Of a stretch of DNA of 64,000 nucleotides, positions 1,156-60,582 are shown one piece after another (the stretch's first letter is position 1; the number at the start of each line of letters is the position of its first letter). Below the pieces are notes generated by a model. That model did no database searches and was not told the DNA's origin. It was given only the letters and a program-made list of their open reading frames with translations. This DNA is from a virus (Duplodnaviria; Caudoviricetes): the IMG/VR virus record IMGVR_UViG_3300031853_000006, positions 1-64,000 of that record; one strand, given 5' to 3'. Made by a program: the position numbers and the translations under genes.

Positions 1156-2157
1156 ATGTATACAGGAGAAAGACATTATGTAATGTCAGGTTCGTTGACA
1201 ACCGCAATGGTAGAAAAGCTAATAACCATACCTACATTTGAACCCATTGATGTACTTGTATCTCAGTTAGATCGAGCAGGTGTAAACAAGATGCTTGAGT
1301 ATATGGAAATGGGAGCTGTAAAGTCGCTATTCATCGATTCAGGAGCGTATTCGATCCATGCACAGGGATTTGAAAAAGTAGCCAAAGGCCGCTTCGCAAC
1401 TATCGATGAATTCATAGATGAGTACATTGAATATGTAAATGAATTAGATGATAAAATCATAGCCGTCGCTCAAGTCGATCATATTCCAGGTGTATTCAGG
1501 CAGCCGAAAACACCTCAAGACTATATCGAGTCAACAGAACTGTCGTGGGAAAACTTTATGTATATGTACCCCAAGATGAAGAGCCCCGAAAAACTGATAG
1601 CAGTAATGCATCAAGGAGAATCATTCGATTACTTGAGAAAGTTAGCAAACTGGCGAGGAGATCACGGAGAGAAAATAGAGTATCTAGGAATCAGTCCTAG
1701 TAATGACCGCGGAGTCAACGAGAAGGACATTTATCTTAAAGAAGTTTACGATTGCCTTCAGGGTACTACTCAGCCGGATATCAGGACGCACTTGTTTGGC
1801 TATACTTCATTGCCAGGATTGGAGAAGTTCCCATGGTATTCAGTAGACTCTACTTCTCATCGTTTGCGTCCTGCATATAATAAAGTATTTGTACGAGAGT
1901 TCGGAACCATTTCGTTATCTCGAAAGCGTGAGACTACAACCAAGACGGACCAAATGTTTTTGGAGGTTGCTGACAAAGAAAATATAAAGTTGCTAGAAGA
2001 TCGAGCCAAGAGTTACAACTTGACGCTAGACGAGCTGGAGAATGAAAGTTGGGCACGTACAGTATTTGATATCATGGAAGTGTCAGCTTTCGTCAAAGAG
2101 CATCCTTACAATCCGAAGAAGCTAGGCAGGAGGAAGAGGTTATTCAACATTGATTAA
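1156..2157 (+). CDS. tRNA-guanine transglycosylase (TGT)-fold protein, possible DpdA-like DNA base-modification enzyme
   Basis: Motifs FIDSGAYS, QVDHIPG, VMHQGE, HLFG and PWYSVDSTS typical of phage queuine tRNA-ribosyltransferase-like proteins. Confidence 0.6.
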   Translation: MYTGERHYVMSGSLTTAMVEKLITIPTFEPIDVLVSQLDRAGVNKMLEYMEMGAVKSLFIDSGAYSIHAQGFEKVAKGRFATIDEFIDEYIEYVNELDDKIIAVAQVDHIPGVFRQPKTPQDYIESTELSWENFMYMYPKMKSPEKLIAVMHQGESFDYLRKLANWRGDHGEKIEYLGISPSNDRGVNEKDIYLKEVYDCLQGTTQPDIRTHLFGYTSLPGLEKFPWYSVDSTSHRLRPAYNKVFVREFGTISLSRKRETTTKTDQMFLEVADKENIKLLEDRAKSYNLTLDELENESWARTVFDIMEVSAFVKEHPYNPKKLGRRKRLFNID

Positions 2158-26311: not shown

Positions 26312-27802
26312 ATGGCAACAGTAACTAAGCCACCGATCTTAGATGATACAGGTCAGGGAATTGTAGGAGCACTCGATGATATTCTTGAAACAGCCCAGCT
26401 TTCTGCTCCGATTGCAACGCTTGAACATATCGGAAAAGTAAAGCCAGACGGGATAACAGTCAGAACTGACAATAACGGAGTCCTTACAGTTGTCAAATCT
26501 GTAATTGAAATCCCGAGAGTTGATCAGGATACTTTCACCTATGATGGATCACAGAAAACACTCACATTCATCAATATCAATCCGGACGAGGTGCTTGTAA
26601 CTGATAATGTAGCAACTAATGCAGGGACATATACTTGCACATGTACGCTTAAGAACCCGAATGCGGTATGGAGTGATAGAACAGCAGCTCCGAAAACCTA
26701 TAACTATACAATCAATAAGGCAGCAGGTTCAATAGTATTGTCACCTAGTTCCGTTTCACTTACAGGTTCACAGACATCTGTAACTGTAGACGTAACAATT
26801 ATCGGCGATGGCGTAGCTGTTTTTGGGTCAAATGATACCTCGATTGCAACTGTAACCCCTGACTCGTTGACTATGTCAGGTACAATAACTATAAGCGGTA
26901 CCGGAACAAACGGCGATACAACTATATCAGCTGTACTTGCAGCCGGTAATAACTATACAGGAGACTCAACAACTTGCGAAGTTTCAGCGAGTTACATTCC
27001 GATGAAGACGTTTGCAGCAGCTACGGATGCTGAGATTGCTGAGATGGTCGCTGCAGCTGATGCAGGTCTCATTGACTTGTATGAAGACTGCGGTTGGCGG
27101 GTTGGGCAGGAACACACTACAACATTGAGTGCTATTGCGGGGTCTGGGACGTATGACGGCGTATCGTGGACAGGTAGACCGCAGCCTGAACAGTCAATTA
27201 CCTTCGTGCTCCTTCATAGGGGGCTCTATCAGTTACAGAAAGCTGTTAAGAATAAGGACGGAAGTTCTAGGAACACTTGCTCGTTTGTAGTAGGACTTAA
27301 AGGAACGCTATCGCAGAACGCAAATGTTGACTCTAGCTCACCTAAGCCCTCTTGGCGATCGACTTCATTGAGGACTTGGCTGAATAGTGGATTTGTTTCA
27401 GGTATCCCGTCAGCCTTGCTACCTGCTTTTAAACAATTCTACACTACCACAGGATACATCACTGACCTCACTTATGGATGGGAAAGTACTGATCAAACAG
27501 TAGATAGATTTTCCTTAGCTGCTGAAAAAGAAATTCACAATACTCATCAATACAGTATTACAGCTGAAGCTAATCTATTGACCCAATTTAGCTATTATGA
27601 GATTTCAGCTAATCGAATGAAAAGTCGAGTCGGTATGACCGGCTATGACGAATACTGGAACAGATCAGTTGGGTCATATAATTCGGTGAATCGTGATGGA
27701 ACTATGTATGTTACTTCTTATGTTAGGAGTGGCAATCCTTATCCTTCGGCAAGAACATGCAGTTATGACTCATGTTTCGTTTCGCCATTCGGCGTCATGT
27801 AA
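26312..27802 (+). CDS. receptor-binding/fibre protein paralog A (Ig-like region plus C-terminal DUF6273/CLec-like domain)
   Basis: VKPDG repeat, Ig-like middle, LRTWLN...W-x-RS...SPFGVM C-terminus; paralog of 31381 and 33529. Confidence 0.75.
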   Translation: MATVTKPPILDDTGQGIVGALDDILETAQLSAPIATLEHIGKVKPDGITVRTDNNGVLTVVKSVIEIPRVDQDTFTYDGSQKTLTFININPDEVLVTDNVATNAGTYTCTCTLKNPNAVWSDRTAAPKTYNYTINKAAGSIVLSPSSVSLTGSQTSVTVDVTIIGDGVAVFGSNDTSIATVTPDSLTMSGTITISGTGTNGDTTISAVLAAGNNYTGDSTTCEVSASYIPMKTFAAATDAEIAEMVAAADAGLIDLYEDCGWRVGQEHTTTLSAIAGSGTYDGVSWTGRPQPEQSITFVLLHRGLYQLQKAVKNKDGSSRNTCSFVVGLKGTLSQNANVDSSSPKPSWRSTSLRTWLNSGFVSGIPSALLPAFKQFYTTTGYITDLTYGWESTDQTVDRFSLAAEKEIHNTHQYSITAEANLLTQFSYYEISANRMKSRVGMTGYDEYWNRSVGSYNSVNRDGTMYVTSYVRSGNPYPSARTCSYDSCFVSPFGVM

Positions 27803-27867: not shown

Positions 27868-28082
27868 CTCGACAAACAGGGCAACCTGAGTTCAAAGCCT
27901 TAACCAGATTTACTTGGTACGAGACAACGAGTAATCAGAACAAAAACACCCCTTGGTGGGAGCGTTTGCCTCGTTACGACGGCGATAACTCTTTTTGTTG
28001 TGTGCGAGGCGACCGTGCCAGCTCTAACCTTGCCAGCAACTATATTGATGGGTATGTGTTGTCGCCTTTCGGCTGCTTGTGA
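27868..28082 (+). pseudogene. internally deleted silent 3' cassette B
   Basis: LDKQGN-coding DNA joined directly to EFKALTRFTWYE...SPFGCL*. Confidence 0.7.
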
Positions 28083-28841: not shown

Positions 28842-29498
28842 TTCACTACCTTACCTCAACACGTATAAAAGCTTGAAAACAAAGAATCAGCAGGGTTGCT
28901 CACCCTGCTTTTCTTATTGTGTTGTTTCTATTAAATAGCTATGTGTTATATGCAGCCGAAAGGCGCCAACCCAGAAGCATCGCTAGCGTTGTAACCGGTG
29001 GCGTAGCCGTTGCTGTGAACACGACAGAAAGGGTAGCCGGAGTCGTAATTAGGCGAACGCTCCCACCAATAGTAGGCGGAGCCATTTTGGTTTTTGATTC
29101 GATTGCTTGTAGTCTCGTACCACGTGAACCTTGTTAACGCTTTGAACTCTGTCAGGTTTGAGTATGCGGTTTGCTGACCTGCTTTTCCTCCCTGGCCGTA
29201 CGTCTCATCACCCTTGAACACTTCTGCTGCGGCAGGAAGTGCAAAGTAATCTTGAGACGTCGTAGTGGTTGAAGCATTGTATGCAGTTACAGTCTCGCAG
29301 TGGAACTGCTTGAACGTTGCTTGCAAGCTAACTGGCAACGATTGGCGGAACCCTCCATTGCACCAATAACGTCTTTTAGATGACTTCCATGAGCCTGCGT
29401 TAGTATTCGAAGGATTCATATAACCTGCCTCGCTCAAACAATCCTTCACCCCAACCACAAACGAACAAGTAGATCTTGAGTTGCCGTTGGTGTCCAAC
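28316..29498. repeat. 64-bp perfect inverted repeat, arms 28316-28379 and 29435-29498 (C/D)
   Basis: GTTGGACACCAACGGC...GAAGGATTGTTTG. Confidence 0.92.
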
Positions 29499-29704
29499 AC
29501 AGGAGTGACAAGATGATACAGTCCCTTATGCATCAACACTAACGTGATCTGTTGTTCAGGCTGTGATTCCCCGACTGACCATGATACTCCCTCATAAGTC
29601 CCCGAAGCCGGAATCGCCGCAAGCGTCGTCACATGCTCCTGCCCAACCCGCCAACCGCAGTCTTCATACAAGTCAATGAGACCTGCATCAGCTGCAGCGA
29701 CCAT
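28946..29704 (-). other. silent 3'-end cassette D
   Basis: Homology to paralog A begins exactly at the 68-bp repeat; ends APFGCI*. Confidence 0.88.
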
Positions 29705-29973
29705 TGTTTGTTTTTTACTCAACACACTCGAACAATCACACCCGTGTTGCGCATGAGCTGACGCCCTACTGTCGGTGCAGTACACACATTTCAGAAACAC
29801 CGCTTCGCACATCATAAGTGGTCAACAGGAGAAGCTCTAAGTGTCACACACTACAAGAACACTGTGTAGTTGTGAAACTAGAGTAGTAGCGAGCTTCTCC
29901 TGTTGCGGTTGTTGCGGAGTGCAAGTGAGGTGTTTTTGAGAAGGTGAATGATTCTTTTTGATCGATAGAGAAC

Positions 29974-30507
29974 GTCGTGGGTGTGAAGGATTGCTTGAGT
30001 GCTGAGGGGTATATGCATAGGAGTGACTATACTACAGGATACTGGTCTAGATGTAGCCGCAGGTATTGGTGCAATGGCGGATTCTTAAGCAGCATTTCAG
30101 ATGAATTGCGCCTCGCATTCAAACAATTCAATTGTAGTACTTGGGAGAGGGACGACACTTACAACTGGAGCCTTCACACAGTTTCGGATTATTTTGCACT
30201 ACCTGCCGAAAAAGAGGTGTGGGGAACTGACCCCGAAACTTCTGGCCAGCTATGGAGTCCAGCTAAAGAGCAAGCTGTACTTACTGTATTCGCTTATTAT
30301 GAAACTAGATCTAATATAACTAAATATCGAGGGAGTGGCATAAATAGTTGGTATGAGCGTTCGACTGGTACTATGACTGATGGTAACGGTCCACATTTTT
30401 GCTATTGCTATTATAATCGCTCGCAAGAATTCTATGTGCCGAATGACATGCGGTACAACGAGACGATGTTGAATAACCAAGGTATCTCGCCATTCGGAGT
30501 TATGTAA
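29974..30507 (+). other. silent 3'-end cassette E
   Basis: Starts VVGVKDCLS; about 50-bp imperfect inverted match to cassette F; ends SPFGVM*. Confidence 0.85.
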
Positions 30508-30516
30508 AATTGAAAT

Positions 30517-30566
30517 AAAGTGCTGATTCATGCATCTGCATTGCAGGATTGAGTCAGCACTTTATT
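30517..30566. terminator. bidirectional terminator-like hairpin between convergent cassettes E and F
   Basis: AAAGTGCTGATTCA...TGAGTCAGCACTTT. Confidence 0.65.
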
Positions 30567-30616
30567 TAAGTTCATCTAGGATTTAATGCAAGGTCTAGCT
30601 AGCCTATTGAAGAATT

Positions 30617-31208
30617 TCATAAACATCCTACAGGGGATATTCCTCGAACAGAGTCAGCAAATCCAAAGCTGCTGCCCGGCTCAGTACCCATCACAAAGCA
30701 ATTGTAGCGGATGTCGTTATACCAAGGTGAGCGTTCTGACCAAGTTGATACATAAGTTCCGCCATGCCCTTGAGCCTTATAAAGATTTCGTTCTATTTCA
30801 TACCATTCAAAGCGAGTTAGCTGATTGAACTCATATATGTTGGAGTATGCGGTTCCTGTCCCTGCCGAGCTACCGTTGCCGTAAGTTCTGTGTCCTTTCC
30901 ACACTTCGGCTGCTGCAGGTAAGAAGAAATAGTCTTGAGTTTGCTGTACAGTTGAACTGTTATAAGATTCGGCAGTTAATACGATGCATTTCTTGAATAC
31001 ATTTCTCAGTGACTCAGGCACCGATTGCCTGAATCCTCCGTTACACCACTGTCTACGAGCACATCCCTTCCAAGATGTAGAATAACTACCACTCCTATGC
31101 ATATACCCATTCGTACTCAAGCAATCCTTCACTCCTACGACGAAGGAGCACGTTGTGCGGGGGTTGCCTTGTTTGTCGAGGACGGGGGTTGTTAGTTGGT
31201 AGAGGCCT
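30617..31208 (-). other. silent 3'-end cassette F
   Basis: Starts GLYQLTTPVLDKQGNP at the 91-bp repeat; ends SPVGCL*. Confidence 0.88.
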
Positions 31209-32379
31209 GGTTTGGCACATCTGCCCAGACTAAAATCAAGCCCGGCGCAGCGTCAAATTACACTTGCAAACTGATGATTAACCTTGTTTATTACTTGAAA
31301 AGAATTGTAGTTCAACTTACCATTCTACAAAGGAAACAAACAAATTCTTCATTATCTACAAGGAAGGAGAAAATAATCATATGGCAACTGTTACACAACC
31401 ACCGATTATTGATTCAACGGGTCAAGATATTGTCGACAAGCTCGAAGAGATCAGCGAAGAGATTCAATCGTCGATTACAACCGCAGCGGTTGGTCGTCTT
31501 GGCTTAGTTAAACCCGATGGAGATACTATCGAAGTAACCGCAGACGGAACGATTTCGGCAACAAAGATATACATTCCGACTCCCATAATCAGCACTCAGA
31601 CCTACACTTACAACGGATCTGAGCAGACGCTAGTCTTTACTTCAATCAGTACCTCTGATGTAGTTATAACTGGAAACAAGGCGACTAACGCAGGTAGCTA
31701 TTCTTGCACAGTTACGCTTAAGAATCCAAGTGCGATGTGGTCAGACGGGACATCAGCTCCGAAGGTCTATCCGTGGTCAATAGCCAAAGCAACTGGATCA
31801 ATCACATTTTCAGAAAGTTCCATCGAATTGACGACAGGGACACCCTCAGCAACTGTAGTAGTAACTATCGTGTCAGACGGAAACGCAACGATAGCAGCTG
31901 CTGATCCAACAGTGGTATCTGTTTCGCCTTCTATTATGAGCGCATCCGGTAACTTAACAATAACTGGATTAAAGACAGGCGCAACAACGGTTACCGCGAC
32001 GCTTCCGGCAACAACAAACTTTACGGGTGCGACAACATCTTTAACAGTCGATGCCCAGATGCTTCCGATGAAAACATTTGCAGCTGCAACTGATGCCGAA
32101 ATAGCTCAGATGGTTGCAGCCGCTGATGCTGGACAGATCGACCTTTACGAGGATTGCGGATGGAGAGTAGGGCAAGAGCATCAAACAACGATCTCAGCTA
32201 TTGCAGTATCTGGTACATACGACGGAGTCACTTGGTCAGTTGGTGAATCACAGCCGCAGCAAACAATAACACTCGTGTTAATGCACAGAGGCCTCTACCA
32301 ACTAACAACCCCCGTCCTCGACAAACAAGGCAACCCTCGCAGCACGTGCTCCTTCGTCGTCGGAGTGAAGGATTGCTTG
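31118..32379. repeat. 91-bp inverted repeat (4 mismatches), arms 31118-31208 and 32289-32379 (F/G)
   Basis: AGGCCTCTACCAACTAACAACCCCCGTCCTCGACAAACAAGGCAACCC...GGATTGCTTG. Confidence 0.92.
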
Positions 32380-32868
32380 TCTGCTGCTGGCTATATGAAC
32401 TTGACAAATACTAACGGAGGCTCGTGGAATGCATCAAATAGAAGACCATGGTGCAATGGAGGATTTCGTCAATCCTTATCGGATAGCTTGCGGTCTGTAT
32501 TTAAGCAGTTTGAGACAGTGACGGCTCAAACTTATAGTGGCTCAACAAATCAAACATCGCAAGACTACTTTGCCCTCCCTGCCGCAGCAGAAGTGTTTAA
32601 GGGCGACTCGATGTACGGAACTGGAGGTTCGGCAGGTCCAAAAACTGCATACTCAAACCTAACAGAATTCAATGCTCTAACAAGGTTCACATGGTACGGA
32701 ACAACGAGCAATAGGGTCAAAACCAGAAAAGATTCCGCCTACCCTTGGCGGGAGCGCTCGCCTTATTACGGCTCCAGCAACCATTTCTGTTTTGTGAGCA
32801 ACAACGGCGGTACCGACCTTACCACTGCTAACGGTACTGTTGGATTGTCGCCTTTCGGCTGCTTGTGA
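31381..32868 (+). CDS. receptor-binding/fibre protein paralog G
   Basis: Same architecture as A; AACCTT motif at 31280 and GGAAGGAG RBS. Confidence 0.8.
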   Translation: MATVTQPPIIDSTGQDIVDKLEEISEEIQSSITTAAVGRLGLVKPDGDTIEVTADGTISATKIYIPTPIISTQTYTYNGSEQTLVFTSISTSDVVITGNKATNAGSYSCTVTLKNPSAMWSDGTSAPKVYPWSIAKATGSITFSESSIELTTGTPSATVVVTIVSDGNATIAAADPTVVSVSPSIMSASGNLTITGLKTGATTVTATLPATTNFTGATTSLTVDAQMLPMKTFAAATDAEIAQMVAAADAGQIDLYEDCGWRVGQEHQTTISAIAVSGTYDGVTWSVGESQPQQTITLVLMHRGLYQLTTPVLDKQGNPRSTCSFVVGVKDCLSAAGYMNLTNTNGGSWNASNRRPWCNGGFRQSLSDSLRSVFKQFETVTAQTYSGSTNQTSQDYFALPAAAEVFKGDSMYGTGGSAGPKTAYSNLTEFNALTRFTWYGTTSNRVKTRKDSAYPWRERSPYYGSSNHFCFVSNNGGTDLTTANGTVGLSPFGCL

Positions 32869-33349
32869 TGATAGCATACAAAACAAGCTCCGCAACGTCG
32901 TTTAACTTTGCGGAGCTTTTTCTTTGATTAAGTTGAGAAGATTAGTTTGTTATAAGCAGCCGAAAGGCGCTAACCCAGAAACAATGTTAGCGTAGCGATC
33001 GGCGGCGGAGCCATAGCCGCTAACAAGACAGAAACCGCTGCTGTCGCGGTAACGAGGCGAACGCTCCCACCAATAGTCGGCGGATCCATTCCAATTTTTA
33101 ACTCGGTTACTTGTTGTTTGGTAATATGTTATTGCTGACAACGCGTTTGCTTCGGTAGTTGTGGAATAAGTCCGAGAATTGAAGATTTCCTTTTCAGCGA
33201 ACAGTGCAAAGTAGTCTTGTGAAGTAATATTTGCTCCTCCGGAAGTCGAGCCGCTGTAATCCCCAGTCACTGTCTCAAACTGCTTAAATACAGACCGCAA
33301 GCTATCCGATAAGGATTGACGAAATCCTCCATTGCACCATGGTCTTCTA
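32439..33349. repeat. 84-bp perfect inverted repeat, arms 32439-32522 and 33266-33349 (G/H)
   Basis: TAGAAGACCATGGTGCAATGG...GAGACAGTGAC. Confidence 0.92.
32950..33349 (-). other. silent 3'-end cassette H
   Basis: Starts at the 84-bp repeat; ends APFGCL*. Confidence 0.88.
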
Positions 33350-33528
33350 ATCGAGTAACCCTGTCCACAATTCTACGAACCCTCTAAACTCCCACACTGC
33401 AAACTACACTTAAATCTCAACAGACCAACCTTGTTTAATACTACATTGAAGGAGAGTTCTACCCCTCCGATCTTATACAAAGAAACACAACGAGAATTCT
33501 TCAAATACAAGGAAGGAGAAATATCAAT

Positions 33529-35022
33529 ATGGCAACAGTCACAGAGCCTTTATTGCTTGATGAAACCGGTCAGGCAATGATTACGCAACTTGAGAACATC
33601 AATGATGCACTCGAAGTTAAGGTAACACCTGCAACGACTGATAAGTTAGGGCTTGTCAAGCCTGATGGAGTTACTCTTAATGTCACACCCGACGGGACTA
33701 TATCGTCATCTCGCATCTTTGTTCAGGTTCCTGTAGTCAGCGAACAGACCTACACCTACAACGGGCTGACGCAGTACCTCATATTCACATCAATCTCTCG
33801 AGAAGATGTTACTGTCACAGGTGATTCTGCTACTGATGCAGGTAATTACACTTGTACAGTTTCACTTAACAATCCGAACGGAATGTGGAGCGACGGAACA
33901 GTCGCACCTAAAACATTCCCTTGGTCAATTCAGAAAGCAACCGGTTCAATCACATTATCTGAATCATCGCTTTCGCTCGATACTAACACACCCTCCGCAG
34001 TAGTTAATGTAACTATCGTAGGTGACGGAACAGCGACGTTTGCAGCAGAAGACCCAATGATTGCGAGTGCTTCGCCGTCAGTTATAACCTATTCATCTCC
34101 TGTAACAATAACAGGACTCCGGACAGGTTCTACAACGATCACAGCAACATTGGCTGCAACAACAAATTACACAGGAGACAGTGCAACTATAGAAGTTACA
34201 GCTGAGATGGTTCCGTTAAAGACGTTTGCAGCTGCAACTGATTCAGAAATCCGACAGATGGTTGAAGCAGCAGATGCGGGACTTATTGATCTCTACGAAG
34301 ACTGCGGATGGAGAGTCGGTCAAGAGCATCAGACGACTGTTGCAGCAATGGCAGCATCTGGTACATACGACGGAGTCTCCTGGTCAGTGGGTGAGACTCA
34401 TGCAGAGCAAACAATAACACTTGTATTGATGCATCAGGGCTTGTATCAGTTAGTCAACGCAGTTAAGGATAAGCAAGGAAATAACAGGACAACCTGCTCT
34501 TTCGTCGTCGGAATGAAGGATTGCCTTAACGAAGGCGGATATATGAATTCTACTAATACAAATAGTGGTTCATGGAACGGATGTGCAAGAAGATCCTGGT
34601 GCAACTCTGCATTCCGCCAAGCCCTCCCTGCCGATTTAAGAGCAGTGTTTAAGCAGTTTGAAACGGTCACCGCAACGGAGTACAACGCTAGTACGACCAC
34701 AACATCACAAGACTACTTCGCCTTAGCAGCTGCAGCCGAAGTGTTCAAGGGCGATCCTGATTATGGTCAAGGCGGCTCAGCCGGTCAGCAAACCGCATAC
34801 TCAAACCTGACCGAGTTCAACGCACTGACGCGATTCACTTGGTATGAGACATCAGCGAATAGGAGGAAGGCACAAGGACAGAACGGATCTAATATATTTT
34901 GGTATGAAAGGTCACCCTGTGCAGATGTTACAGCGACGTGGCTCTGTGTTAATCAAGGAGGAGGTCCTCGAGGGAGTGGGGCTAATAATCAATTCGGATT
35001 AACATTCTTCGGCTGCTTATAA
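33529..35022 (+). CDS. receptor-binding/fibre protein paralog I
   Basis: Same architecture; AACCTT motif at 33427. Confidence 0.8.
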   Translation: MATVTEPLLLDETGQAMITQLENINDALEVKVTPATTDKLGLVKPDGVTLNVTPDGTISSSRIFVQVPVVSEQTYTYNGLTQYLIFTSISREDVTVTGDSATDAGNYTCTVSLNNPNGMWSDGTVAPKTFPWSIQKATGSITLSESSLSLDTNTPSAVVNVTIVGDGTATFAAEDPMIASASPSVITYSSPVTITGLRTGSTTITATLAATTNYTGDSATIEVTAEMVPLKTFAAATDSEIRQMVEAADAGLIDLYEDCGWRVGQEHQTTVAAMAASGTYDGVSWSVGETHAEQTITLVLMHQGLYQLVNAVKDKQGNNRTTCSFVVGMKDCLNEGGYMNSTNTNSGSWNGCARRSWCNSAFRQALPADLRAVFKQFETVTATEYNASTTTTSQDYFALAAAAEVFKGDPDYGQGGSAGQQTAYSNLTEFNALTRFTWYETSANRRKAQGQNGSNIFWYERSPCADVTATWLCVNQGGGPRGSGANNQFGLTFFGCL

Positions 35023-35531
35023 TCTGCAAATCAAAAGAACTGCCATCAAAAGGCAGTTCTTTGAATGTACGCAGAAAGTTTAATCATACTAGCCCGCTGC
35101 CTACAACTGTGCGGCAGCGGGCTTCGCGGAGAGTGTTCTGTTCCTCCGCGAAATAAGATAGAGCCATCTAGTTCAGCCTAGTTGCATCAAACCGCCAATT
35201 TTAGGCGGTTTTCGTTTTGTGTCACAAGCAGCCGAAAGGCGACAACCCACGAGCATTGCTAGCGTTGCTACCGCCGGCGCTGGCGTTGCCCACAGCACAA
35301 AAACCGTCGCCGTTGTAGCAACGGGGCGAACGCTCCCACCAAGCGGAGGCGGAGCCCTCCACATTTTTAGCTCTGTTGCTCGTTGTCTCATACCACGTGA
35401 AACGAGATAGTGCGTTAAATTCGGTCAGGTTTGACCATGCGGTTCCTTGACCTACTGAAACACCTGTACCATAATCCGGATCCCCCTTGAACACTTCGGC
35501 TGCAGCTGCTAAGGCGAAGTAGTCTTGTGAT
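34704..35531. repeat. 48-bp perfect inverted repeat (64 bp with 2 mismatches), arms 34704-34767 and 35468-35531 (I/J)
   Basis: ATCACAAGACTACTTCGCCTTAGCAGCTGCAGCCGAAGTGTTCAAGGG. Confidence 0.92.
35222..35531 (-). other. silent 3'-end cassette J
   Basis: Starts SQDYFALAAAAEVFKG; ends SPFGCL*. Confidence 0.88.
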
Positions 35532-35534
35532 TAA

Positions 35535-35909
35535 TCAAAGGCAGCCGAAGGGAGATAGACCATAATTACCTATCACATAATAATTAGTAGGAGTGCCAGA
35601 GCTGCTCGCTAGACACTCATCAGTGTCATTATAGTAAGCAGGCGAACGCTCCCACCAACCATAGGCGGATCCGTTCATAGTTTTGATCCTGGTTGTTGTC
35701 CGATAGTAAGTGATAGCAGTCAGCGCGTTTGCTTCGTTTGTCGTGCTATTGGGATTTGATGCATGAACCTCCTTTTCGGCAAACAGTGCAAAGTAGTCTT
35801 GCGATGTAATGTTTGAGCCTCCGGTTTGATAATTATTAGATTGACCAGTAATGCAGTTAAACTTCTTAAACACTGCTCTTAAATCGGCAGGGAGGGCTTG
35901 GCGGAATGC
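35535..35909 (-). other. silent 3'-end cassette K
   Basis: Starts AFRQALPADLRAVFK; ends SPFGCL*. Confidence 0.88.
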
Positions 35910-36021
35910 GCTTAAACTCCGTCAAAAATGAAACTACATTATTATATAAGAAACAAAGTAATTGATGAACCTTATTTAATGTTGATGAAATCAATGATCA
36001 CTGGAAGGAGGAAATCTTCAA

Positions 36022-36483: not shown

Positions 36484-37104
36484 ATGGCCCAAGTAACATC
36501 CCCTCTCCTGCTAGACGGAACAGGCCAGACCATGCTCACGAAACTCGAAGGAATTCGTGCAGCACTTGCTGCAGAGGTAACCCCTGCAACAACAGCAACG
36601 GCAGGTATCGTCAAGCCGGACGGAACCACAATTACAATAGATGGTAACGGAACCATTTCAGCTGCCGTAGCCCCTGCAACAACATCGGTCGCAGGTACTG
36701 TAAAGCCGGACGGAACCACCATTACCGTCACCAACGACGGAACAATTTCTGCAGATGTTGCCTTTGCAACAACCGCAAAAGCAGGTACTGTAAAGCCGGA
36801 CGGAACGTCGATCACAGTATCGAATGACGGCACCATCTCAGCACAAGCAGGCGAAATGGTGTTCCAGAGTCACTTAATAGAAGCATCAGGATGGTCAAGT
36901 AACGTATATTCATTTGAGCTGGAATATCCGAGTGCTTCATATGACATTCTTGACATCACACCTAGTGAGACTGCATCAGATGCACAGAGAAAAGCATGGA
37001 TTTCGGCAGATTGCGGTGGGTTCAGAGCAACTAACACAATTTATGCACACGGAACCGTGCCCACAACCGACATTCCCGCAGTATTGCTAGTAAGGTCAAA
37101 GTAA
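36484..37104 (+). CDS. tail-fibre protein with three tandem AT-x3-AG-x-VKPDGT-x-IT-x4-GTISA repeats
   Basis: Three ~90-bp tandem repeats at about 36580-36843; N-terminus like paralogs A/G/I. Confidence 0.7.
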   Translation: MAQVTSPLLLDGTGQTMLTKLEGIRAALAAEVTPATTATAGIVKPDGTTITIDGNGTISAAVAPATTSVAGTVKPDGTTITVTNDGTISADVAFATTAKAGTVKPDGTSITVSNDGTISAQAGEMVFQSHLIEASGWSSNVYSFELEYPSASYDILDITPSETASDAQRKAWISADCGGFRATNTIYAHGTVPTTDIPAVLLVRSK

Positions 37105-38135: not shown

Positions 38136-39615
38136 ATTATTTATTAAATATAACGATTCTTACGAATTTTCACTGAATCTATAAGAATCTAGTGAAATAT
38201 ATAACCTTAAATATAATTAGATATCTAAACAAAGAATGAGAAAGGAGGTGAAACATATGAAAACTTGGAAATCTAACCTTAAGCATCTTAGTCTAAAAGA
38301 TTATGAAATCCTTCGTGATATGTGCCATGCAAGCAAGAATGTTTACAATGCTTCGCTTTATAACATTCGGCAACATTTCTTTCAACAAAGCGAATTTCTT
38401 CGATACGAAGCTAATTATCACTTGATGAAAGGTACCAATGTCTACGATTATCTTGGTAATGTTGCCCAGCAATCTATGAAAGCAGCTGACAGTGCATTCA
38501 AAGCTTTCTTTGCTTTGATTAAAATGTATAAGCAAGGCAAGTTGGAGAGTAGGCCTAACATTCCACATTACTTACCTAAAGATGGATTTTTCAAAATCGA
38601 GTTCAACAGCCCTAGGGACCAGAAGAAGAATATCGAGCAAGGCTACTATCAGCTACCAATGTCTCGATACCTTGCAACCAAGTACGAAGGCATCAGGGTC
38701 AAGATAACAATTCCGCCTTACTTGCGTGACAAACATATTCGACAGATCCACATCATTCCTAGATGCAATGGCAAGTACTTCGAAGCCTGTTTCTTGTTTG
38801 ACGATGTCGAAAATCAAAAAGTTAATCTCGATTTAACTAAAGCATTAGCAATTGATTTAGGTGTCAACAATTTTGCAACTTGCGTAACTTCTGAAGGAGA
38901 TTCATTTATAATTGACGGTAAGAAAATCAAATCAATCAACCAATGGTATAACAAAGAAAATGCCAGACTGTCAAGTATTAAGTATAAACAGAAGTTAAGC
39001 AAAGAGGCAACCAACAGGCAAGCACGATTGTCCGCAAAACGAGGACGCCGCATCAATGATTTCATCTATTGTTCTGCAAAGTACATAGTTGAATATTGCA
39101 TCGATCATAACATTGGTAATCTTGTTGTAGGATACAATGACGGCTTTCAGGATAATCCTAATCTAGGTAAAGTCAACAATCAAACCTTTGTGATGCTACC
39201 TTACGGCAAATTCAAAAGCAGGCTCGAACATTTATGCAACTCGGTTGGGATAACCTATACCAAACAAGAAGAATCTTATACCTCAAAAGCAAGTTTCTTT
39301 GACCTAGATGATATGCCAATTTGGAACCCTGATAATCCTCATCAAGGCAGCTTTTCTGGGAAGCGAATCTATCGAGGTCTGTATAGAAGAAACAATGGAA
39401 CTAATCTTAACGCTGATGTAAATGGAGCGCTAAATATCCTAAGAAAATGTAATGTTGTAGACCTTTCGGTCTTATACAGTAGAGGCACTGTCGTCGTGCC
39501 TACAAGAATAAGGCTATCCTGACTTTTTCAGGAGGAAACTCAAACAGCAACCTTCTTGCGAATAGAATTCTATTAAAAATCTTAATGTAACTTGATAATT
39601 TTTAATTTATTCTAA
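38100..39615 (+). mobile_element. solo tnpB element (IS200/IS605-IS607 superfamily), ends approximate
   Basis: tnpB without tnpA, AT-rich flanks, gene fragments on both sides. Confidence 0.6.
38257..39522 (+). CDS. tnpB: RNA-guided endonuclease TnpB
   Basis: AIDLGVNN (RuvC-I), LVVGYNDGF, QEESYTSKAS, NADVNGALNI (RuvC-III). Confidence 0.92.
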   Translation: MKTWKSNLKHLSLKDYEILRDMCHASKNVYNASLYNIRQHFFQQSEFLRYEANYHLMKGTNVYDYLGNVAQQSMKAADSAFKAFFALIKMYKQGKLESRPNIPHYLPKDGFFKIEFNSPRDQKKNIEQGYYQLPMSRYLATKYEGIRVKITIPPYLRDKHIRQIHIIPRCNGKYFEACFLFDDVENQKVNLDLTKALAIDLGVNNFATCVTSEGDSFIIDGKKIKSINQWYNKENARLSSIKYKQKLSKEATNRQARLSAKRGRRINDFIYCSAKYIVEYCIDHNIGNLVVGYNDGFQDNPNLGKVNNQTFVMLPYGKFKSRLEHLCNSVGITYTKQEESYTSKASFFDLDDMPIWNPDNPHQGSFSGKRIYRGLYRRNNGTNLNADVNGALNILRKCNVVDLSVLYSRGTVVVPTRIRLS

Positions 39616-56312: not shown

Positions 56313-58568
56313 ATGCCTAAAGCAATCAATCTAACTAGCACACAAGTAGAAGAACTGAAACAGCTAATTGCAGACGGCACTACACAGCAAAACGCTTGCA
56401 AACATTTTGGAATCTCCGAAAGTAAGTTAGCAGCTATTTGCAAAGAGAATAACATTGAACGCAAGTGGGTTAGAGAATATACTTGTGTTCTGTGCGGAAA
56501 GGTCTTCAAGGCATCTCATAAATCTGCTATATGTCCTGAATGCAAAGCTACTCCGAATGTGTGTGTAATCTGCGGAAAAGCATTCCCAAAGAAGTATTTC
56601 CCTTACAATCAAAAGACGTGTTCCGCTAAATGTCGAGGAGCATACAGAGCTCAATCCGGCACCGCAAAAGCAGGAGCACAGAAAATGAAAGAAACTAAAA
56701 TGGAGCGCTACGGCACGCTAGATCCTGCGGAAGTAACTAAGAAGAAAAAGGGAGGAGAACTTGATCCCAAGATCTGCCCATTGTGTGGAAAAGAATTTGT
56801 ACCGGATACTCCTAGACAAGTCTACTGCAAAGATGTTCATTATGTTCCCTGTCCGGTCTGTGGCAAGATGACAGAACTCAAAGATATTTCTATAGGCCCT
56901 CAGGCTTGCTCAGAAGGATGTAGAATGGCAAGGATCAATCAAACTTGCCTAGAGCGATACGGGAATAAGGACGCAGTCAATTCGGAGCACGCGAAGAAAC
57001 TGGGAAAGCAAACATCGCTTAGAAAGTATGGCAAAGAATATTACATGCAGACTGATAAAGCGAAGCAGCATTACAAAGATGTTATCCAAGAGAGATATGG
57101 AGTCACAGCTCCTATAGCATATCCAGAATTCAAGGAGAAGGCTAAGCGGACTAATCTGGAGAAGTATGGAACAGAGTATGCTTCACAGTCTGAAGAGATA
57201 AAAGAAAAGGTTAGACAGACTAATCAAGAGCTCTATGGTGGGGCAGGCTTCGCTTCGCCTATATTACGCAAGCGCATAACAGAAACAAACAAAGAGCGGT
57301 ATGGAGTAGAATTTCCAGTGAGCAGCCCAGAAATCCGACAGAAGATATCTCAGTCCCTTCGTGATAATTATGGAGTAGATAACTTCTGGAAAACCAAAGA
57401 AGACTTAGCAAGACGGATCAAAGATCCAAGAAAGATTGACGATTACTACGCATTTAAGCAAGATCCTAGAGGGTATGTAGAAAGCCATTACGAAGATAAA
57501 CCTCCAATCTATGTACTAGCAGATGATCTGGGAGTCACAGATACGCCCATTTATGATATACTCATCAACGCGAAATGTCAAGATGTAATAGATAGAACTA
57601 AACAGTCTAGCATGGAGTATGAAATCGAGCACTTATTGCGAAAGCTGGTGCCCGATGCAGAGATATGGGTCAATTGTAGACGAGTTCTTCCTGAAAATAA
57701 AGAGATTGATTTCTACTTGCCAGAATACAAATTCGGCATTGAATGTAATCCAACTATCACGCATAATTCTACAGTGTCTGCATGGAACCCTGGAGTAGAT
57801 CCCGCGCTGCCCGTCAGTTATCATAAACAGAAATCAGAACAAGCCATGCAGGTAGGCGTGTTCCTATTTCATATATTTGGATATGAATGGACAAACAAAC
57901 GAGCCATAATAGAATCAATGATTGCAAATATCTTAGGCAAAAATACAAATAAGGTCTATGCGAGGAATACACAGATAATACAAGTAGACGCGCCGACGGC
58001 TAAGAAGTTTCTAGACGATAATCACCGCCAAGGAGGGACTAACGCACCTATCAGATTAGGGCTCAAAGATAAGATTACTAACGAATTAGTGAGCCTCATG
58101 ACCTTTGGAAAAACACGTCCTAGTATCGGAAAGGAGCAAGATGCATTAGATACAGATTACGAATTGATACGATTCTGCAACAAATTGGGTACATCTGTAG
58201 TCGGAGGAGCGTCGAAGTTATTTAAGCATTTCTTATCAGAATATGCCCCAACAAAAGTGATATCATTTTCTGACATAGCACATACTAAAGGAGGACTGTA
58301 CCGGACACTAGGGTTCAAGGATGTAAGTCATTCTGATCCCGGATATGTATGGGTGAAACATTACACTGACGAATACCGAAACCGTGTATCCTGCCAGAAG
58401 GCGAACCTTCTAAAAATGTTTGACGATGTGACAGAAGAGGATATTGAAACAAAGTCAGAACGAAAAATCATGATAGACCACAAATACGTACAGGTTTACG
58501 ATAGCGGAGTCATACGATGGGAGTATACTCCAGTATCGTTAAATAGTGCAGAAGATGGAGGTGAATGA
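56313..58568 (+). CDS. multidomain endonuclease-like protein (Zn ribbons, [KR]YG repeats, Vsr/PD-(D/E)xK-like nuclease, C-terminal GNAT/Mom-like domain)
   Basis: CxxC pairs; ERYG/EKYG repeats; EIDFYLPEYKFGIECN; ELIRFC...VVGGASKLF...LY-x-x-LGF. Confidence 0.7.
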   Translation: MPKAINLTSTQVEELKQLIADGTTQQNACKHFGISESKLAAICKENNIERKWVREYTCVLCGKVFKASHKSAICPECKATPNVCVICGKAFPKKYFPYNQKTCSAKCRGAYRAQSGTAKAGAQKMKETKMERYGTLDPAEVTKKKKGGELDPKICPLCGKEFVPDTPRQVYCKDVHYVPCPVCGKMTELKDISIGPQACSEGCRMARINQTCLERYGNKDAVNSEHAKKLGKQTSLRKYGKEYYMQTDKAKQHYKDVIQERYGVTAPIAYPEFKEKAKRTNLEKYGTEYASQSEEIKEKVRQTNQELYGGAGFASPILRKRITETNKERYGVEFPVSSPEIRQKISQSLRDNYGVDNFWKTKEDLARRIKDPRKIDDYYAFKQDPRGYVESHYEDKPPIYVLADDLGVTDTPIYDILINAKCQDVIDRTKQSSMEYEIEHLLRKLVPDAEIWVNCRRVLPENKEIDFYLPEYKFGIECNPTITHNSTVSAWNPGVDPALPVSYHKQKSEQAMQVGVFLFHIFGYEWTNKRAIIESMIANILGKNTNKVYARNTQIIQVDAPTAKKFLDDNHRQGGTNAPIRLGLKDKITNELVSLMTFGKTRPSIGKEQDALDTDYELIRFCNKLGTSVVGGASKLFKHFLSEYAPTKVISFSDIAHTKGGLYRTLGFKDVSHSDPGYVWVKHYTDEYRNRVSCQKANLLKMFDDVTEEDIETKSERKIMIDHKYVQVYDSGVIRWEYTPVSLNSAEDGGE

Positions 58569-58569
58569 C

Positions 58570-60582
58570 ATGGCAACTTACACCTGCAAACGGTGCGGAA
58601 AACAGTTTGACCTAAGAGGTTTCAGCAAGTATTGCAAAGAATGTCGTGATTACTACACACCTTGCGTTATTTGCGGAACTCCAGTGCACCAGACGAATCC
58701 GGAAAATGAAGCTAAAACATGTTCAAGAAAGTGTGCAGGGCTGTATAGAAAACAATCTGGAATAAGTAAAGCTACTGCGGAGAAATCGATAGCGACTAAG
58801 AATAAGAAGTACGGCAACGGGTCAGGGGCTAAGTACAAGCCGAGGAAGTGTAAGCTCTGCGGAAAAGAGTTTATCCCAAATGGTTCAAAACAAGTTTACT
58901 GCAAGAATCCACATTACGGTCCGTGCCCTGTTTGCGGTAAGCAAACACTTATAAGGGAATTAAGCAAAGGACCGAACGCTTGTTCAGAAGAGTGTAGAAT
59001 AGCTCTTATTACTAAGTTAGCGAGAGAGCGCGATAATACCGAGTCGCTGAAGAAGAACCGGCAGACTTGCTTAGAAAGGTACGGAGTTGAATATTATTCC
59101 CAGACTAAAGAGTGGCGTGACAAAGTAGCCGAAACGTCAATGGAACATTACGGAACTACTTGCCCGCTAGCTAGCCCCGAAATTCATGAACAACTTGTTA
59201 AAACTAATATAGAGAAATATGGCTATGCTAATCCTGCGCAAGCTCCTGAAATAATTGAAAAGATTTCAAAGACTTTAGAAGAGCGTCATGGAGGTTGCGG
59301 AATGGCATCTGACGCAACACGTGAAAAGATATATGCAACTAACAAAGAACGCTACGGAGATATCCACCCTGCAAGGACTTTACAATGTAAGGAGAAGGGG
59401 AAGCAAACATCGTTGGCTCGTTACGGATACGAAAGCTATGCAAGTACTAAGGAAAGCATTGCACGTAGTATGCTAGATCCTAGCAAAATTGATGACTTCT
59501 GGAGCTTTCGCGCAGATCCTGAAACGTATGTAACATCTCATTACAAAGTGAAACCATATGCAGATGAATTAGCTGCCGATCTAGGATTCAATGAAACATC
59601 TGTATATGACATATTGATCAACTTCAACTGCAAAGATGTAATCAATCGTAGCAAAACTTCTATTATAGAAAGAGAGATGTACGAGTTCCTGACTACATTA
59701 GTCCCCGAATCTGAAATCAGAAAATGTGACAAACGGACAATCACCCCACTAGAATTAGATTTCTATCTGCCGAACTATAATTTTGCAATTGAATGCAATC
59801 CAACATATACTCACAATTCCTCATTCAAGTCCTTCGGAGAGGGTGAGCCTAAAACAACAGTGTACCACAGAAACAAAACAGATAAAGCAGAAGAAGCTGG
59901 GATATTTCTGATGCATGTTTTCGGGTATGATTGGCTTTATAAACAGGACATCATTAAATCGATGATACGCAACGCCTTAGGAAAATGTGATACTACAATT
60001 TACGCCCGGAATACAGAAGTAAAAGAGCTAGATGCAAAAACTACTCGTGAGTTTCTCAACACTAATCACAGACAAGGTGATGCATCATCTCCTATCAGAT
60101 TAGGTCTAATAGATAAGCAGACGAAAGAGCTTGTTTCAGTAATGACGTTTAGCAAACCTCGTACAACTATCGGAAGTAGTGCAGATGATCCTGAAGGATC
60201 TTATGAGCTTGTCAGATTCTGTAGTTTGCTAAATACTTCTGTAGTAGGAGGGGCTTCAAAACTATTCAAGTGGTTTAGTAGTAACTATAATCCTACAAAG
60301 ATAATATCATTCTCAGATAGAGCGCATACTCGAGGAAACTTATACAGCTCCTTAGGTTTTCACGAAGTTCGAAGATCTGATCCCGGTTACGCATGGGTCA
60401 ACGTATACACAGAAGACTACAAGAGCCGTGTAGCCTGCCAAAAACACAAACTCCCTCAGCTATTTGACGACGTAACTGAAGAAGATATGAGCAATAAGTC
60501 AGAACGAATCATAATGATGGAACATAATTACGCGCAAGTTTATGACAGCGGGACAATACGATGGGAGCTAGAACCCCGTTGA
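58570..60582 (+). CDS. tandem paralog of 56313..58568
   Basis: ELDFYLPNYNFAIECN; ELVRFC...VVGGASKLF; ATG at 58570 after GGAGG. Confidence 0.7.
   Translation: MATYTCKRCGKQFDLRGFSKYCKECRDYYTPCVICGTPVHQTNPENEAKTCSRKCAGLYRKQSGISKATAEKSIATKNKKYGNGSGAKYKPRKCKLCGKEFIPNGSKQVYCKNPHYGPCPVCGKQTLIRELSKGPNACSEECRIALITKLARERDNTESLKKNRQTCLERYGVEYYSQTKEWRDKVAETSMEHYGTTCPLASPEIHEQLVKTNIEKYGYANPAQAPEIIEKISKTLEERHGGCGMASDATREKIYATNKERYGDIHPARTLQCKEKGKQTSLARYGYESYASTKESIARSMLDPSKIDDFWSFRADPETYVTSHYKVKPYADELAADLGFNETSVYDILINFNCKDVINRSKTSIIEREMYEFLTTLVPESEIRKCDKRTITPLELDFYLPNYNFAIECNPTYTHNSSFKSFGEGEPKTTVYHRNKTDKAEEAGIFLMHVFGYDWLYKQDIIKSMIRNALGKCDTTIYARNTEVKELDAKTTREFLNTNHRQGDASSPIRLGLIDKQTKELVSVMTFSKPRTTIGSSADDPEGSYELVRFCSLLNTSVVGGASKLFKWFSSNYNPTKIISFSDRAHTRGNLYSSLGFHEVRRSDPGYAWVNVYTEDYKSRVACQKHKLPQLFDDVTEEDMSNKSERIIMMEHNYAQVYDSGTIRWELEPR

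Follow-up and report, generated by a model that had tools for sequence, protein, structure and literature searches.

What kind of process can scramble about twenty codons at the end of a phage tail-fibre gene while leaving their third bases frozen? This question is raised by a fibre array at 26.3-35.9 kb of the window, the window being the whole stretch of DNA analysed, i.e. the first 64 kb of the 116,896-bp IMG/VR virus record IMGVR_UViG_3300031853_000006. The array comprises three full-length paralogous fibre genes of about 495 amino acids (aa) each, all on the plus strand and with pairwise identities of 48-64%, interleaved with eight C-terminal fibre fragments on both strands. Its eleven tips are named A to K after the preliminary description of this DNA, which had read several of them as variable regions (VR) of a diversity-generating retroelement (DGR). 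On the evidence given below, we put at about 80% the probability that D, G, H and J end in DGR variable regions of 42-43 codons, orphan in this strain, and that B is a decayed example.

Under this reading, cDNA made from a template repeat (TR) rich in AAC and AAT codons would have overwritten each VR, with random bases inserted opposite the template adenines. Such writing accounts for about 20 codons scrambled at their first two bases, for frozen third bases, and for an adenine-free scaffold that remains identical even though synonymous change has saturated the paralogous DNA around it.

The clearest pair is formed by cassettes D (28946..29815, minus strand; the C-terminal half of a fibre, without the N-terminal part) and H (32950..33300, minus strand; a C-terminal piece of 116 aa), which were delimited as open reading frames (ORF) with DUF6273 searches, and whose VRs of 43 codons each lie at 28952..29080 and 32956..33084 (both minus strand). 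Direct reading of the two VRs confirmed that exactly 20 codons differ, that 19 of the differences are non-synonymous NNY-to-NNY changes (Y, pyrimidine), that the third base is kept in 18 of these 19 (the exception being AAC/TAT), and that the three scaffold blocks quoted in the preliminary description are identical; the twentieth difference is synonymous (TTG/TTA). Differences at codon positions 1/2/3 number 15/13/2 in the block versus 16/15/42 in the 60 aligned codons directly upstream of it, and the contrast in third positions (2/43 versus 42/60) is highly significant (Fisher p = 3.5e-12). Synonymous sites are therefore saturated outside the 129-nt block and frozen inside it: apart from this block, D and H are old paralogues.

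The same pattern extends to G (32734..32862, plus strand), the tip of intact fibre gene 2 (31381..32868, plus strand; 495 aa; DUF6273 E = 2e-9, and protein alignment), and to the 42-codon VR of J (35228..35353, minus strand; one codon shorter), read directly in a C-terminal piece of 90 aa (cassette J, 35222..35494, minus strand). When D, G, H and J are compared two by two, each of the six pairs has 2-7 third-position differences in 41-42 codons, whereas 29 codons further upstream have 11-21 (D-G, p = 0.019; the other five, 8e-5 to 1e-9). The fraction of NNY codons in the variable stretch is 0.96 in D and H, 0.93 in G, 0.92 in J, 0.89 in B and 0.81 in K, to be compared with 0.66 in A, 0.54 in C, 0.64 in E, 0.71 in F, 0.52 in I and a gene background of 0.50. 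Sites that are invariant among D, G, H and J are depleted in adenine (3/68 versus a background of 30%; p = 1.8e-7). The ranking of cassettes in the preliminary description, in which G, J and B follow the pattern while A, C, E, F, I and K are more diverged, was thus found to be right. Tip B (27942..28076, plus strand; two extra codons and 7-12 third-base differences to the group) is a decayed member. Tip K (35541..35669, minus strand), carried by a C-terminal piece of 112 aa (cassette K, 35535..35873, minus strand; ORF and DUF6273 searches), is doubtful: it is rich in NNY and NNT codons, yet its third bases are not those common to D, G, H and J, from which it differs at 17-20 third positions. 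A, C, E, F and I are ordinary tips, including those of fibre gene 1 (tip A; 26312..27802, plus strand; 496 aa; weak DUF6273 match) and fibre gene 3 (tip I; 33529..35022, plus strand; 497 aa; DUF6273 E = 1.5e-8). Tips D, H and J sit on fragments that lack a promoter and lie on the strand opposite to the fibre genes, and VR G is the only VR-type tip at present on a full-length gene.

A template and its enzymes were found in a sister strain. The L120 contig was reached through an identical 62-aa protein, and its source sample also yielded contigs with 92-94% identity to the end of the record. The two strains part at a breakpoint located at 35910..35962 of the window. To the right of 35962, L120 is identical to this strain at 198 of 201 positions (99%); to the left, cassettes J and K occupy the place where L120 carries on its minus strand, directly beside the fibre array, an Avd-like ORF (202 aa; E = 8e-16 with an Avd profile built for this analysis), a TR (1617-1745, minus strand) and a reverse transcriptase (RT) of 377 aa (RVT_1, 46.7 bits; GxxxSQ and YMDD motifs). 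The L120 contig begins with the last bases of a plus-strand VR-bearing gene, which match the TR and are convergent with the RT. The RT and Avd that the preliminary description had proposed to seek beside the template are thus present in a sister strain at the same locus, and the real TR is rich in Asn codons, as was the template it had deduced. Since the core is absent from this record and present in L120 where J and K sit, the VRs of this strain are considered orphans.

In L118, which is more distantly related, the upstream genes are syntenic (67-78% protein identity) and there is only one fibre, which bears a VR and has 492 aa, followed in order by a 154-aa ORF, an Avd (Avd-like ORF, E = 6e-15 with the same profile), a TR and an RT. 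Within the repeat of L118, VR and TR mismatch at 21 positions, every one of them a TR adenine, and the TR starts exactly where the third-base identity of D and H starts. The RTs of L118 and L120 are just 40% identical, and the Avd-like ORFs of both are unnamed by Pfam and NCBIfam. The 154-aa ORF of L118 (3080-3544), between target and Avd, has an RNase-H-like RVT_3 match (26.4 bits), which is unusual for DGR cassettes.

The adenine test was performed over 123 aligned bases of the L120 TR, which is an orthologous and not the cognate template, by counting changes at adenines and at other bases. Changes were found at 21/40 adenines and 7/83 other bases in D (6 of these 7 at third positions; Fisher p 1.5e-7), at 27/40 and 11/83 in H (2.5e-9), at 25/38 and 9/82 in J (1.8e-9) and at 23/40 and 13/83 in G (4.3e-6); for K the contrast was weak (21/40 and 29/83; p 0.08). 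Non-adenine differences amount to 8-16%, as against a strain divergence of 6-8% elsewhere, i.e. slightly above it for D and more so for H and G. As the value of D is close to strain divergence, the L120 TR is considered an allele of the template that did the writing, and not that template itself. The writing would have been done by such an allele either before a recent loss of the core here, or in DGR-positive relatives whose tips were then recombined into this genome.

The template of an unrelated phage pointed the same way. An exact scan of IMG/VR with an 18-base scaffold sequence returned 77 loci, many of them in phages of about 45 kb in which two copies lie about 655 nt apart, the second being rich in AAC and AAT; L022 is a textbook cassette, with a 381-aa target ending in the scaffold motif, an Avd, a TR and a 457-aa RT. 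These phages, which have classical VR-Avd-TR-RT cassettes, share the Trp-Trp-Glu-Arg-Ser-Pro scaffold of the tips described here, and their TR agrees with the window tips in number of codons. The TR adenines of one of them, unrelated to this phage, predict the variable tip sites (30/33 versus 17/66 at other bases; p = 3.5e-10). With a TR and a DGR-type RT in relatives, and mismatches that fall on template adenines, the DGR reading of the preliminary description held.

The same machinery was sought in this phage. The 116.9-kb record has no match to RVT_1, a profile that was found in the records with the DGR cassettes of the 45-kb phages (positive control). Profiles built from 15 DGR RTs and 17 Avds of these phages gave nothing in the record better than E = 1, a tblastn search of it with the L120 RT found nothing, and nothing in it resembles the L120 RT or Avd. 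No TR was found in the record: it has no Asn-codon-rich copy anywhere, and the scaffold occurs in the cassettes only. The proposal that the DGR acts in trans or is historical was therefore right as far as the 116.9-kb record is concerned, which contains no RT, Avd or TR. Exact-protein look-ups placed the same phage on a 145,798-bp ENA contig that reaches about 28.7 kb further upstream than the record, and a second contig of this phage (33,012 bp) carries baseplate and head genes; both contigs belong to ENA sample ERZ27256883. Their gene lists (8.8 kb + 15.2 kb) include a RecA-like gene and no RT, which brings the coverage of the RT search to about 141 kb (116.9 kb of DNA, and Pfam gene lists for 24 kb more). 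The upstream extension of the 145.8-kb contig encodes a holin, a clamp loader and the RecA-like recombinase, and the 33-kb contig encodes gp25, a prohead protease and a Gp23-type capsid protein. The DNA polymerase of a relative was used as a route to the 5' part of the 145.8-kb contig, and its ortholog was not among the 120 matches listed.

The diversified codons belong to a known kind of target. Eight of the nine cassette and gene products match DUF6273 (PF19789) at 24.7-45 bits, above the gathering cut-off of 23.5, and the product of fibre gene 1 falls just under it (21 bits). DUF6273 is a C-type-lectin-like DGR target with its VR at the C-terminus (PMC10743442, PMC11792537, 10.1101/2024.10.15.618418). 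A structure of cassette D (252 aa) was predicted from an alignment with a predicted local distance difference test score (pLDDT) of 94.7. This model matches the DUF6273 domain of 9qa6 (Z = 16.7), the DGR target TvpA (2y3c; Z = 7.1), the C-terminal domain of Lcl (Z = 7.2) and dozens of C-type lectins (Z = 5.4-6.7), in agreement with the C-type-lectin-like fold assumed in the preliminary description. In the model, VR residues 210-252 form the last four strands. The tips are accordingly predicted to make up the surface at the C-terminus of the receptor-binding domain of the tail fibres, which is of the DUF6273, C-type-lectin-like kind. All VR-type tips end one codon short of the stop, with a common 3' motif that differs from the 3' ends of the L120 and L118 TRs at the same two or three bases.

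Several points weigh against orphan DGR variable regions written by a template of this lineage. The L120 TR differs from the VRs at 7-13 non-adenine sites, and neither the record nor IMG/VR, the metagenome contigs and the GTDB genomes yielded a cognate TR, identical to D and H at every non-adenine site. The RT search did not extend to at least 38 kb of the phage (about 20 kb at the 5' end of the 145.8-kb contig and about 18 kb of the 33-kb contig). The scaffold of G, J and B differs from that of D and H, which needs several template alleles or later drift. Finally, the only adenine of the scaffold, that of the Glu codon in Trp-Trp-Glu, is kept in all silent cassette copies, which points to selection on the silent cassettes or to few writing events. 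G, J and B have some other scaffold codons in common, two of which are also found in the L120 TR, and G has several non-adenine scaffold changes; G probably comes from an older or different template allele. The difference between the scaffold alleles of D/H and of G/J/B indicates more than one round of writing, whether from a template that evolved or in separate strains.

The scaffold alleles are also an argument for a competing explanation, in which the tips were not diversified in this genome: recombination would have brought in every VR-type cassette from a DGR-positive relative of its own. There are at least two allele classes (D/H and G/J/B), the TR of the sister strain being a third; the upstream parts of the cassettes are only 60-75% alike; DGR-positive sister strains exist; and the phage encodes a RecA-like recombinase. 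The limits of the frozen third-base block, however, are the exact limits of the TR in L118 and L120, and retrohoming into resident cassettes fits this better than repeated recombination at the same two breakpoints. Moreover, D and H carry one scaffold allele between very different flanks. We regard this competing explanation as possible but rather doubtful.

A working DGR core in the uncovered part of the phage genome, writing all VR-type tips remotely, silent ones included, is considered unlikely. The uncovered sequence leaves space for it, targets 17 kb from their TR have been published in Toutatisvirus (10.1101/2024.10.15.618418), and the near-identical scaffold of D and H suggests that the last writing was done from a single template allele. 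On the other side, the core directly adjoins a fibre gene in both core-bearing relatives, its place is taken here by cassettes J and K with a clean breakpoint, about 141 kb of the phage is devoid of RT, and searches of IMG/VR, metagenome contigs and GTDB genomes with patterns based on the D/H scaffold yielded no TR. Diversifying selection on binding residues combined with codon bias, with no retroelement involved, is effectively refuted by the codon data: receptor-binding tips are commonly under positive selection, but selection can neither freeze synonymous third bases (2/43) beside neighbouring codons where 42/60 differ, nor align variable sites with the adenines of real TRs, and the tips of D, G, H and J have NNY fractions of 0.92-0.96 against a background of 0.50. 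Orphan VRs written by a DGR of the L120 lineage remain the preferred explanation.

How tips written on silent fragments could reach an expressed gene is suggested by inverted repeats within the array. The repeats are 98% complementary over 89 nt between the end of fibre gene 2 and cassette H (32434..32522 / 33266-33354), 98% over 51 nt between fibre gene 3 and cassette K (34609..34659 / 35859-35909), 86% between fibre gene 3 and J (34704-34851 / 35384-35531), and 83% over 130 nt between fibre gene 1 and cassette D (27044..27173 / 29575-29704). A Logan contig of the same phage breaks at 27044..27173, and the arrangement of the array is known from single assemblies. The 116.9-kb record has no match to the serine or tyrosine recombinase families (PF00239 and PF00589). 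As there is neither such a recombinase nor a short conserved crossover site, the repeats being 50-330 nt of paralogous coding sequence, any switching would occur by homologous recombination. That the frames of the silent cassettes have stayed open speaks for their use. The tips may serve as an archive, from which recombination between the long inverted repeats would transfer them to the three expressed genes.

From this we tentatively propose a two-tier system as one possible mode of action. A DGR would write any cassette that has the VR 3' end, promoterless inverted fragments included, and recombination at inverted repeats would move the archived tips to the three expressed genes. Strains without a core would live off the archive, which could be re-supplied during co-infection with DGR-positive sisters, in trans or by recombination.

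Several further searches were made for the template or for other carriers. None of the 77 IMG/VR scaffold loci qualifies as the template source, the closest differing from D/H at 23/89 fixed sites. The D/H scaffold used as a pattern, with N at the variable sites, gave no hit in viral sequences or GTDB genomes and two unrelated VRs in metagenomes (L095 and L096), and the second half of the VR used in the same way gave none in genomes or viral sequences. Among the IMG/VR relatives, those found by fibre protein or alignment (L078-L080) have ordinary tips and no RT, and those found by sheath or baseplate proteins (L084-L093 and L100-L108) are mostly fragments, none with an RT. A D-like tip in a relative (L094) has scaffold codons that differ from those of D. 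The L118 RT fragment used as a query retrieved nothing but a near-twin of itself, which is a weak result given the low identity of the L120 RT, and the P0270 search of IMG/VR found nothing. At 90% identity clustering, all fibre proteins are singletons, so that the clusters supply no VR variant from another sample. The tip family of L109, L110 and L111 was rejected as a source, having different synonymous scaffold codons.

The latter is a very large hypervariable DUF6273 tip family in phages of about 40 kb, with more than 60 listed proteins sharing one scaffold; no RT is found closer than 6 kb to the target gene, and these may be further orphan or remote DGR targets. The same 18-base scaffold is also found in L001 and about 40 similar loci, which encode a protein of about 811 aa in gut phages of about 45 kb. 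The tip of this protein is nearly invariant between phages, and looks like a non-diversified relative of the VR.

The phage itself is contractile-tailed, with a sheath, a portal, an SNF2 helicase and homing endonucleases among its genes, and belongs to the T4-like myoviruses, with a genome that measures at least about 180 kb, the length of the two ENA contigs taken together; it is larger than the 78% completeness estimated by CheckV for the record implies. Right of the fibre array, a fourth gene (36484-37104) has the N-terminal fibre motif of genes 1-3 and an unrelated C-terminus. The motif is followed by three tandem 90-nt repeats (36563-36842), and this gene is the least conserved stretch between the strain of the record and L120. 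Just right of the array lies a TnpB / IS605 OrfB-type gene of 428 aa (38236-39522), assigned from a PHROG transposase match and from OrfB_IS605 in the ENA gene list. L120 has at the matching place a 366-aa ORF without OrfB match, and the insertion may therefore differ between strains. Two adjacent ORFs at 56313-60582 (751 and 678 aa) match HNH / homing-endonuclease PHROGs (E ~1e-100), one of them also with a weak Mom-like match.

Part of what is described here is already published: the target family is known, as are DGRs with more than one target and targets that persist after their DGR is gone. Faecalibacterium phages Lelie, CP11, Roos and Pioen, the tentaclin phages nd4/nd12 and Toutatisvirus have the same target domain, C-terminal VR and AAC/AAT template logic, and phages that keep their targets but lack a DGR have been reported (10.1101/2024.10.15.618418; PMC11792537; PMC10743442). 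Unlike these gut-phage DUF6273 DGRs, the present array has four to six VR-type tips, most of them on promoterless inverted C-terminal fragments, and its record lacks the core. DGRs with several targets, up to eight, are known from Treponema denticola and Stenotrophomonas (PMC10743442). They resemble the present case in that one template lineage wrote several paralogous VRs, but their targets are complete genes in cellular genomes, whereas here they are mostly silent gene fragments in a phage.

Other systems are alike in part. The DGR of Bordetella phage BPP-1 (Mtd, bAvd, TR and Brt) makes adenine-specific changes in the C-terminal VR of a receptor-binding protein with a C-type-lectin fold. As in our tips, the 3' end of its VR differs from that of its TR; it has one target beside the core, however, whereas here the core is missing, and there is no detectable sequence similarity between the two systems. 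In the pilS/pilE system of Neisseria and the vls system of Borrelia, an expressed gene draws on a store of partial, unexpressed variant copies by gene conversion in bacteria. The likeness is one of working and not of membership, as the variants here bear the scars of a retroelement and lie in a phage genome. The invertible systems Mu Gin, P1 Cin, the Rci/Rin shufflons and a shufflon of BV01-like phages (PMC13596623) also place alternative C-terminal cassettes in opposite orientation behind an expressed gene; in contrast to them, the record described here has neither a serine/tyrosine recombinase nor a short conserved crossover site, and inversion is only suggested by its repeats. We found no published description of an array in which silent fibre cassettes in inverted orientation bear tips written by a DGR.

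The usual description of a DGR is that of a single RT-TR unit serving one or two complete target genes, whereas the tips described here are spread over silent, oppositely oriented fragments, and one strain has the core while the other lacks it, despite 99% identity at the junction. This strain pair is a natural with/without comparison for asking whether a DGR acts in trans on the genome of a co-infecting phage. Should the archive be in use, a single host-range locus would combine hypermutation with cassette switching, and this would explain how DGR cores can be lost without losing the diversity that they have produced.

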